NCBI RefSeq assembly: GCF_054482525.1
Contig: NZ_CM137006.1
Reading direction: 5' to 3' (one strand)
DNA length: 64,000 nucleotides
The notes under the pieces were generated by a model. It was not told the DNA's origin. It saw only the letters and a program-made list of their open reading frames with translations, and did not search any database. Of this stretch, positions 12,514-51,730 are shown piece by piece; positions within the stretch are counted from its first letter, which is position 1; the number at the start of each line of letters is the position of its first letter. Made by a program: the position numbers and the translations under genes.

Positions 12514-13425
12514 ATGTATCAACGCTGTTTTGATAACGCCAGCGAAACGCTGTTTGTCGCCGGTAAAACGCCACGGCTTTCACGTTTTGCATTTAGCGAT
12601 GATCCAAAATGGGAGTCCGGACATCACGTTCATGACAATGAAACCGAGTTGATTTACGTCAAGAAAGGGGTAGCAAGGTTTACCATCGATTCTTCGTTAT
12701 ATGTCGCGCATGCCGATGACATTGTGGTGATAGAACGTGGCAGGCTGCATGCGGTGGCCTCTGACGTTAACGATCCAGCAACGACGTGTACCTGTGCGCT
12801 GTACGGCTTTCAGTTTCAGGGGGCTGAGGAAAATCAGCTACTGCAACCGCATTCTTGCCCGGTAATTGCCGCAGGGCAGGGAAAAGAAGTCATTAAAACC
12901 TTATTTAATGAGCTAAGTGTGATTTTGCCGCAAAGTAAAAATAGCCAAACATCTTCGTTATGGGACGCATTTGCCTATACGTTAGCAATTCTTTACTATG
13001 AAAACTTTAAAAATGCTTATCGTTCGGAGCAGGGGTATATTAAAAAAGATGTTCTGATAAAAGATATTCTTTTCTATCTGAATAATAATTATCGCGAAAA
13101 AATCACTTTAGAGCAGTTATCGAAAAAATTTCGTGCCAGCGTCAGTTATATTTGCCATGAATTTACCAAAGAGTATCGTATTTCCCCTATTAACTATGTT
13201 ATTCAACGGCGTATGACGGAAGCGAAATGGTCACTCACTAATACTGAATTATCACAGGCAGAGATCTCCTGGCGTGTGGGTTATGAAAATGTCGATCACT
13301 TTGCCAAACTGTTTTTGCGCCATGTCGGCTGTTCGCCCAGCGATTACCGCAGGCAATTTAAAAACTGTTTTGCGGAACAAGAAATCCTATCTGAATTTCC
13401 TCAACCAGTAAGTCTTGCCGGATAA
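12514..13425 (+). CDS. ydiP: AraC-family transcriptional regulator YdiP, 303 aa
   Basis: 303-aa ORF with C-terminal AraC-type HTH; divergent from ydiQ. Confidence 0.85.
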   Translation: MYQRCFDNASETLFVAGKTPRLSRFAFSDDPKWESGHHVHDNETELIYVKKGVARFTIDSSLYVAHADDIVVIERGRLHAVASDVNDPATTCTCALYGFQFQGAEENQLLQPHSCPVIAAGQGKEVIKTLFNELSVILPQSKNSQTSSLWDAFAYTLAILYYENFKNAYRSEQGYIKKDVLIKDILFYLNNNYREKITLEQLSKKFRASVSYICHEFTKEYRISPINYVIQRRMTEAKWSLTNTELSQAEISWRVGYENVDHFAKLFLRHVGCSPSDYRRQFKNCFAEQEILSEFPQPVSLAG

Positions 13426-39010: not shown

Positions 39011-39025
39011 TGATAATCATTATCA
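39011..39025. promoter_or_regulatory. Fur box in the sufA promoter (proximal)
   Basis: tgataatcattatca is a near-perfect Fur palindrome ~50 bp upstream of sufA; the suf operon is known to be Fur-repressed. Confidence 0.6.
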
Positions 39026-39070: not shown

Positions 39071-39439
39071 ATGGACATGCATTCAGGAACCTTTAATCCA
39101 CAGGATTTTGCCTGGCAGGGCTTAACGCTGACACCCGCAGCCGCTGTCCACATCCGCGAGCTGGTGGCAAAGCAGCCGGGTATGGTCGGCGTGCGCTTAG
39201 GCGTGAAGCAAACGGGCTGCGCGGGCTTTGGCTATGTGCTCGACAGTGTTAGCGAGCCGGACAAAGACGATCTGCTGTTTGAACACGACGGCGCGAAGCT
39301 GTTTGTCCCGCTGCAAGCGATGCCGTTTATTGATGGCACGGAAGTCGATTTCGTTCGTGAAGGACTTAATCAGATATTTAAATTTCACAACCCTAAAGCC
39401 CAGAATGAATGTGGCTGTGGCGAAAGCTTTGGGGTATAG
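39071..39439 (+). CDS. sufA: Fe-S cluster assembly A-type carrier SufA, 122 aa
   Basis: 122-aa ORF with C-terminal CGCGESF motif. Confidence 0.93.
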
Positions 39440-48315: not shown

Positions 48316-48525
48316 ATGGGAAACCGGACAAAAGAGGATGAACTGTACCGAGAAATGTGCAGAGTTGTCGGTAAAGTTGTGCTGGAAATGCGCGATCTGG
48401 GGCAGGAACCAAAGCATATTGTTATCGCAGGCGTATTACGTACAGCATTAGCCAATAAACGCATTCAGCGCAGTGAGCTGGAAAAGCAGGCGATGGAAAC
48501 CGTCATTAACGCACTGGTAAAATGA
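48316..48525 (+). CDS. ydhZ: Small protein YdhZ (FumD), 69 aa
   Basis: 69-aa ORF MGNRTKEDELYREMCRVVGKVV...; synteny next to pykF. Confidence 0.8.
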   Translation: MGNRTKEDELYREMCRVVGKVVLEMRDLGQEPKHIVIAGVLRTALANKRIQRSELEKQAMETVINALVK

Positions 48526-48765
48526 CCATTCAGGATGAGGCGGTAAGCTTCATCCTGATATTCTTGCTTCAGTTGCGCTCCAGTTAATCACTCTAAATAA
48601 CAACTGCTGAAATTATACGAATTTCGGTATGTATTTTAATTTATAGCGATAATGTTATTTTTATTTTCTGCAATGAACGTCACAAATAATTGTCGCTTAA
48701 GTTAAATTTATTTCAAATGATAATAAATATCAGTTCACTTATAATTTCTTGCTTTGTGATTTTAA

Positions 48766-48779
48766 TTGATAACGATCAA
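48766..48779. promoter_or_regulatory. FNR-box-like site (TTGAT-aacg-ATCAA) upstream of ydhY
   Basis: Perfect TTGAT-N4-ATCAA in the AT-rich region upstream of the ydhYVWXUT operon, which is known to be FNR-dependent. Confidence 0.55.
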
Positions 48780-48980
48780 TGTTAAGGGCTCAGAATAATC
48801 ACATTATTTTTTCTCCTAACCATAAAGGATTAGTTTATCGGCGTTAAATCTTTTCTCATACACTATCGGGTTAGGGAAAATATCTGGTGTTGGGGACAGA
48901 GTCAGCAGCGTATTAGTTGAATGCTTAATATCAGGCTGCTGAATTGTCAGCACTGTGTTTGCGAAGAGGATGCGAAATAA

Positions 48981-51730
<2,750 letters not shown>

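Follow-up and report, generated by a model that had tools for sequence, protein, structure and literature searches.

Which function can be attributed to a perfect FNR binding site that lies about 200 bp away from the start codon of the nearest downstream gene? This question is raised by the palindrome TTGATAACGATCAA (48766–48779, no strand assigned, centre at 48772.5), which can be read directly from the DNA in front of ydhY, the first gene of the ydhYVWXUT oxidoreductase operon. The half-sites TTGAT and ATCAA, separated by AACG, match all ten specified positions of the FNR consensus TTGAT-N4-ATCAA, as the first-pass annotation of this DNA had stated, and no further perfect match occurs in the window, i.e. 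the whole 64-kb stretch that was analysed. The distance of about 200 bp given there is equally accurate, with 208.5 bp between the site centre and the ydhY ATG (48981) and 201 nt between the site and the ATG. Its placement of the site in an AT-rich leader proved right for the base composition (66% A+T) but not for the leader, because the site belongs to the promoter and lies upstream of the transcription start. For the long distance, the annotation had offered either a long 5′ untranslated region or additional regulatory sites. Both were found, namely a leader of ca. 166 nt plus conserved NarL/NarP-like and Fur-like sites.

The best explanation of the data, which we regard as very highly probable, is that the 14-mer represents the only FNR operator of ydhYVWXUT, whose promoter would be of the sigma-70 type and activated by FNR in the class II manner. 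The site is the known FNR site of the E. coli promoter PydhY, reported in 2008 and borne out by genome-wide data in 2013, and thus not new; as its position and effect are documented in publications and regulatory databases, it carries little weight as a discovery. The first-pass annotation demonstrates, however, that a true operator is recognisable from sequence alone. The present analysis provides an independent comparative confirmation of the ydhY promoter architecture across four genera and pins two published regulatory inputs, those of NarL/NarP and of Fur, to specific conserved repeats as candidates.

Genomic setting and published FNR data

The window derives from E. coli and shows the gene order fumD, ydhY, ydhV. 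The region is 100% identical to that of strain PCN033 and is present in 5425 of the 5426 complete E. coli genomes; the assignment of fumD (ydhZ) as upstream gene, of ydhY as downstream gene and of ydhV follows the RefSeq annotations of PCN033 (100%) and of K-12 (ca. 99% identical). According to the list of open reading frames, fumD extends from 48316 to its stop at 48525 and is directly followed on the plus strand by a terminator-like hairpin (48530–48558) composed of a 12-bp stem and a T-rich tail, which delimits the ydhY control region on its upstream side. The ydhY coding sequence (48981–49607, plus strand), identified from the same list and from RefSeq, specifies a ferredoxin-like protein of 208 amino acids. 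As the TAA immediately before the ATG at 48981 closes the ydhY frame, the start codon is fixed and none exists further upstream. The next reading frame, directly after ydhY, is ydhV, and the same order was found in every orthologous locus. The N-terminus of YdhY (48981–49110, residues 1–43, containing TRLEFLRISGKGLAGLTIAPALLSLLGCKQ) resembles a degenerate signal of the twin-arginine type with a lipobox-like LLGC after it, a sequence feature that hints at an exported or lipid-anchored ferredoxin.

The locus and the 14-mer are the same as those of PydhY in E. coli K-12 (Partridge et al. 2008, PMID 18227264; Myers et al. 2013, PMC3688515). Compared with K-12 MG1655, the DNA that separates fumD from ydhY shows four single-base differences and one single-base indel, all of them outside the FNR site. 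The nearest difference, a G here instead of an A at 48759, is located 7 bp upstream of the site, and the indel consists of an additional leader A near 48847 (TTAAATC versus TTAATC). Identity with K-12 extends from 6 bp upstream to 66 bp downstream of the 14-mer (48760 to ca. 48846) and thereby includes the −10 element, the presumed transcription start and the 7-2-7 repeat discussed below; the Fur-like box at 48718–48732 is likewise identical. A CRP-like sequence, TGCAATGAACGTCACA (48669–48684), with two mismatches to TGTGA-N6-TCACA, is located ca. 140 bp upstream of the presumed start and contains a difference to K-12, C to A at 48679. When a 34-bp query (48756–48789) was run across 5,426 E. 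coli genomes, 2192 complete genomes were identical to the window and 2802 had about one difference somewhere in these 34 bp.

The published binding data coincide with this site. Myers et al. (2013, PMC3688515) report TTGATCGTTATCAA, the reverse complement of TTGATAACGATCAA, as a predicted and bound FNR motif near ydhY at U00096.2 position 1752702 (Table S6) and an FNR ChIP-seq peak at U00096.2 position 1752706 (Table S5). The offset between U00096.2 and NC_000913.3 amounts to +1976, as measured on the ydiP/ydiQ motif TTGACGTAAATCAA (1777177 versus 1779153). The FNR site of the window (48766–48779) corresponds to NC_000913.3 1754678–1754691, and the published motif, shifted by 1976, starts exactly at 1754678 and is base-for-base the same as the 14-mer of the window. 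The centre of the ChIP-seq peak projects onto window position 48775 and therefore lies within the 14-mer. In vivo occupancy by FNR is known from the published ChIP-seq experiment; the present analysis established the coincidence of the coordinates.

A sequence elsewhere in the window, TTGATTTACGTCAA at 12649–12662, differs from the FNR consensus by one mismatch and is the reverse complement of the ydiP/ydiQ motif, which is FNR-bound and overlaps an H-NS peak (Myers et al. 2013, PMC3688515). Its position implies that the window and K-12 are not fully collinear in length between 12649–12662 and ydhY.

Functional data from the same study point to activation. Table 1 of Myers et al. (2013, PMC3688515) lists ydhYVWXUT as directly FNR-activated from one site at −42.5, with sigma-70 occupancy and expression both being higher without O2, and cites Partridge et al. 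(2008) as prior evidence for FNR binding. The claim of anaerobic induction made in the first-pass annotation is thereby borne out, also quantitatively: the sigma-70 ChIP peak at 1752642 rises from 46.9 under aerobic to 177.4 under anaerobic conditions (Table S2, PMC3688515), and its position corresponds to 48839 in the window, 24 bp downstream of the presumed transcription start. Furthermore, the operon is rated “Activated” in the comparison of wild type and fnr mutant (Table S8, PMC3688515), and its ratio of 0.25 between aerobic and anaerobic wild type (Table S12, PMC3688515) is read by us as a ca. 4-fold higher expression without O2, in line with Table 1.

The perfect FNR site is not fully occupied in vivo, as judged from an FNR ChIP-chip signal at ydhY that is modest in the wild type (0.29) and reaches 1.82 in an hns/stpA mutant (PMC3688515). 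The same increase suggests that the AT-rich ydhY region is partially silenced by nucleoid proteins. Table S6 (PMC3688515) contains no H-NS or IHF ChIP-chip peak over the ydhY FNR motif.

Core promoter architecture and alternative explanations

From the published value of −42.5 (Myers et al. 2013, Table 1; start from EcoCyc/Partridge et al. 2008) we infer the +1 of ydhYVWXUT at 48815 on the plus strand. According to Myers et al. (2013, PMC3688515), EcoCyc and Kim et al. supplied the start sites of Table 1, and the supplementary start-site data of Kim et al. (2012) contain no entry for ydhY, b1674 or the site coordinate; the +1, and hence the −42.5, rests on this secondary citation plus the conserved −10 spacing. 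Class II activator sites are centred about 41.5 (±4) bp ahead of the start; −42.5 is such a position, so that the comparison with promoter mapping suggested in the first-pass annotation gave, via Table 1, a start site consistent with activation from this site. When the fumD–ydhY intergenic region was scanned with the consensus, allowing up to two mismatches, no other FNR-like site was detected.

The putative −10 hexamer, CATTAT (48802–48807, plus strand), agrees with TATAAT at four of six positions including the key A2 and T6; its exact assignment is based on sequence comparison. Its first base is 29.5 bp away from the FNR dyad centre, and it occupies the nucleotides 23 to 28 after the 14-mer. 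Such a spacing is predicted for a hexamer at −12 to −7 combined with an activator centred at −41.5. At the matching position of a −35 region, only zero to three of six bases correspond to TTGACA, as expected for a class II activator-dependent promoter.

This arrangement was examined in orthologous loci. A YdhY scan of representative genomes yielded 30 loci, in all of which ydhV is located directly downstream and which therefore represent the same operon. Five of them come from Escherichia species (one labelled E. coli), 21 from Citrobacter, one from a metagenome-assembled genome labelled Raoultella and three from Leminorella/Limnobaculum. The E. albertii locus (L027), which is cut inside ydhY and thus lacks upstream DNA, was left out, and the remaining 29 loci plus the window gave 30 promoter regions. 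Both FNR half-sites are present in all 30 regions, and they are perfect in 26 Escherichia/Citrobacter loci and in the window, the three Budviciaceae loci carrying ATCAC in one half. The 4-bp spacer, in contrast, varies (AACG, GACG, AGCG, GATG or AATG), and the 13 bp 3′ of the site vary freely among the loci. The −10-like hexamer was found at the same offset, 23 nt after the 14-mer, in 30/30 regions, with the sequence CATTAT in 26 and GATTAT, GACTAT or CACTAT otherwise. As this spacing is fixed while the distance between the FNR site and the ATG drifts from 138.5 to 241.5 bp, the site goes with the promoter rather than with the gene start, a pattern that is typical for a class II activator site. 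Four loci have an upstream neighbour other than fumD.

The architecture resembles that of the class II promoters of dmsA, narK, nirB and nrfA (site at −41.5; PMC3688515) in combining one FNR site, centred ca. 41.5–42.5 bp in front of +1, with a −35 element that is weak or missing, a sigma-70 −10 element at 29.5 bp from the dyad and additional control by NarL/NarP. The ydhY site differs by its perfect consensus sequence, as most natural FNR sites deviate from it (Myers et al. 2013, introduction, PMC3688515).

On this basis, the following scenario can be proposed. In the absence of oxygen, an FNR dimer with a [4Fe-4S] cluster would bind to the perfect repeat centred at about −42.5 or −41.5, replace the missing −35 element and recruit RNA polymerase to the weak −10 element CATTAT. 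The contacts between FNR and polymerase at ydhY would be, by analogy, those of class II FNR promoters in general (Myers et al. 2013, introduction, PMC3688515). Transcription would start near 48815 and produce a leader of ca. 166 nt before ydhY.

Three other explanations of the palindrome have to be weighed. The one that survives best, although we consider it improbable, assumes that FNR also or instead blocks an FNR-independent promoter further upstream, ATGATA-17 nt-TATAAT (48717–48745), which would start transcription near 48752, so that the FNR site would lie at about +20 of the resulting RNA. This promoter-like sequence attracts attention by its match to the consensus at 10 of 12 positions with a perfect TATAAT and by the overlap of its putative −35 element with the Fur-like box; moreover, the ydhY region was transcribed in vitro, without mention of added FNR, preferentially by the sigma-S holoenzyme (Maciag et al. 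2011). However, promoter-like matches are not enriched over shuffled sequences (4 found versus 2.5 ± 1.6), the TATAAT is not conserved, its perfect form being specific to E. coli and replaced by TTTAAT, TTAATT or TTTATT in other Escherichia and Citrobacter, and no start site has been reported there. Sigma-70 occupancy and mRNA rise rather than fall with active FNR, and the in vivo data all speak for activation. The upstream match might nevertheless be related to the sigma-S-preferring transcription in vitro. Since the cloned ydhY promoter region was better transcribed in vitro by the sigma-S than by the sigma-70 holoenzyme (Maciag et al. 2011), the sigma factor acting at the ydhY promoter may depend on the conditions.

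Still less credible, and in our opinion very unlikely, is the use of the site by CRP or another protein of the CRP/FNR family in place of FNR. In favour of this idea, CRP and FNR sites are related inverted repeats, and both proteins act from about −41.5. Both halves of the ydhY site, however, contain TTGA and not GTGA, i.e. a T instead of the discriminating G at the first position, and the 14-mer deviates from the CRP consensus TGTGA-N6-TCACA by four mismatches; a consensus scan reported no CRP match with three or fewer mismatches at the 14-mer. In addition, an FNR ChIP-seq signal and an fnr-dependent expression change have been published for this site.

Finally, a perfect FNR match, taken alone across the whole window, is only mildly improbable, because at least one was obtained in 11 of 100 whole-window dinucleotide shuffles (mean 0.12 perfect matches). 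Yet a chance palindrome without regulatory role, for which this frequency and the 66% A+T of the intergenic DNA might speak, is excluded by the conservation of the half-sites over four genera with varying spacer and flanks and by the published FNR ChIP-seq peak on the site together with FNR-dependent expression, and merely 0.0018 perfect matches are expected in the 455 bp between fumD and ydhY.

NarL/NarP-type and Fur-like repeats next to the FNR site

The class II FNR-activated promoter is accompanied on both sides by further conserved inverted repeats. Directly downstream of the presumed start, a NarL/NarP-type 7-2-7 pair of inverted heptamers, TAACCAT-AA-AGGATTA (48817–48832, no strand assigned), extends from about +3 to +18. 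It deviates from TACYYMT-NN-AKRRGTA by two mismatches, each heptamer agreeing at six of seven positions, and is one of four 7-2-7 matches of this quality in the 64 kb. In 29/30 loci the repeat keeps its distance to the FNR site, beginning +38 to +40 after it. In Limnobaculum the corresponding repeat, TACCCCCTTAGAGGTA, has diverged in sequence and yet lies nearer to the consensus, with one mismatch.

Regulation of ydhYVWXUT by NarL/NarP is, according to its title, the subject of Partridge et al. (2008) and also appears in a table of Maciag et al. (2011). We tentatively assign this regulation to the exact repeat at 48817–48832 on the strength of its sequence. The effect of NarL/NarP on the operon, which we take to be repression, fits this assignment because the 7-2-7 site overlaps the +1 region; a protein bound just past the start could block initiation or promoter escape under nitrate or nitrite. 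In narK, nirB and nrfA the NarL/NarP sites lie upstream and activate. The NarL/NarP-like repeat of ydhY, unlike these, is located downstream of +1 and hence in a repressing position.

The 7-2-7 repeat is absent from the second ydhY copy of Citrobacter sp. NCU1 (L024). Three Citrobacter loci (L011, L012 and L029) carry an insertion of ca. 20 bp directly after the repeat, about 55–75 nt past the FNR site, and L017 and L018 are similar. The Citrobacter insertion holds a second inverted repeat, TACCCGTGTTTAGGGTA, with heptamer-like arms and a 3-bp gap.

On the upstream side, a Fur-box-like 7-1-7 inverted repeat, TGATAATAAATATCA (48718–48732, no strand assigned), has its centre at about −90, from where the FNR centre is 47.5 bp further downstream. 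Compared with TGATAATNATTATCA (7-1-7, TGATAAT-N-ATTATCA; 14 specified positions), it has one mismatch, and it matches only 14 of the 19 positions of the 19-bp Fur consensus. The only better 7-1-7 match in the window is the perfect box TGATAATCATTATCA (39011–39025), located 46–60 bp upstream of sufA (39071–39439), which served as an internal positive control and fits the established regulation of the suf operon by Fur. The Fur-like box of ydhY is retained with one or two mismatches and a fixed spacing in 27 of the 30 loci, the distance to the FNR centre being 47.5 bp (49.5 bp in the Budviciaceae). It has three mismatches in L010 and L024 and is cut by the contig end in L009.

Experimental support for an action of Fur was published for strain CFT073, in which a Fur ChIP-seq peak was detected in the ydhY promoter region at 1910890; MG1655 also has one (Banerjee et al. 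2020, PMC7157518). Relative to the wild type, ydhY mRNA in CFT073 drops to 0.07 when fur is mutated and to 0.11 in the fur ryhB double mutant, and mutation of ryhB alone leaves it unchanged (PMC7157518), which means that Fur acts positively on ydhYVWXUT and independently of RyhB. The Fur-like motif is found in CFT073 at 1910865–1910879, 18 bp from the published peak. The positive action probably runs through the box at 48718–48732, as its sequence and position indicate, and Fe-Fur bound at about −90 would then raise expression.

Fur might exert this effect by counteracting the silencing of the ydhY region by nucleoid proteins. Nandal et al. (2010) reportedly described ftnA as one of the Fur-activated, H-NS-silenced promoters. 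PydhY resembles ftnA in that a putative Fur box is located in AT-rich DNA at some distance in front of the core promoter, and is positively influenced by Fur in a RyhB-independent manner; as in the ftnA type, removal of H-NS/StpA raises the occupancy by the activator. This resemblance is to be taken as a lead only.

A more far-reaching proposal, which is possible although we hold it to be rather unlikely, regards the Fur, FNR, −10 and NarL/NarP elements as a compact cassette of ca. 115 bp that accompanies the operon when it passes from one family to another, and assigns to Fur the role of an anti-silencer. The cassette is intact with the same internal spacings in Leminorella and Limnobaculum, where fumD is not found upstream and where YdhV is ca. 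90% identical to that of E. coli. According to this proposal, Fur at about −90 would relieve an occlusion by H-NS/StpA in the AT-rich DNA and allow FNR to reach its perfect site. If so, expression would require iron sufficiency, anoxia and the absence of nitrate all together, and the weak FNR ChIP signal at a perfect site in the wild type and its increase in the hns/stpA mutant would be explained.

In the three Leminorella and Limnobaculum loci (L023, L025 and L026), the identity amounts to 87–88% for ydhY and ca. 90% for ydhV. They share the module of Fur-like box, FNR site, −10 element and 7-2-7 repeat, lack fumD upstream and have a shorter leader. The identity of ydhY and ydhV is unusually high for genera of another family, and this suggests, as far as sequence comparison can indicate, that the operon was transferred horizontally along with its control region.

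For the YdhYVWXUT oxidoreductase, which is still poorly defined in its function, the regulatory inputs, anoxia, absence of nitrate/nitrite and iron sufficiency, narrow the conditions under which its substrate may be searched for.

The transcribed leader

The 5′ untranslated leader, as delimited by the presumed +1 and the fixed ATG, extends from 48815 to 48980 on the plus strand and comprises ca. 166 nt (165 in K-12). Its length varies among species due to insertions and deletions in the middle. A structured regulatory leader RNA of the riboswitch or attenuator type was considered and rejected. The ydhY leader gave no match to a known RNA family in Rfam at E ≤ 1 and did not show an unusually stable fold (z-score of the fold energy −1.37), and its last 80 nt, compared in 15 loci, revealed almost no covariation, with a consensus fold of −2.5 kcal/mol and one compensatory pair. 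Two smaller elements were also discarded: a terminator-like hairpin at 48937–48952, which is not kept in Citrobacter, and a four-codon upstream reading frame (ATG CGA AAT AAA TGA, 48970–48984) overlapping the ydhY ATG, in place of which the Budviciaceae have an ATG directly followed by TGA.

Within Escherichia and Citrobacter, a block in the leader (48862–48895, GATCGGGTTAGGGAAAATATCTGGTGTTGG) is conserved. One part of it, GGTTAGG, is the reverse complement of the CCTAACC at the transcript start. A pairing of CCUAACC (48815–48821) with GGUUAGG of the leader RNA is not supported, as changes in the second block (GGTTAAGG and GGTTATGG) are uncompensated in the first. The conserved block could be a further protein-binding site.

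The highest conservation of the leader is found at its end. The ca. 40 nt before the ydhY ATG (48940–48980, ending with GTTTGCGAAGAGGATGCGAAATAAATG) are almost invariant across four genera including the Budviciaceae, which sets them clearly apart from the remaining leader. They include the ribosome-binding sequence GAGGA, and a translation-initiation region or a target of a small RNA are both possibilities for this stretch.
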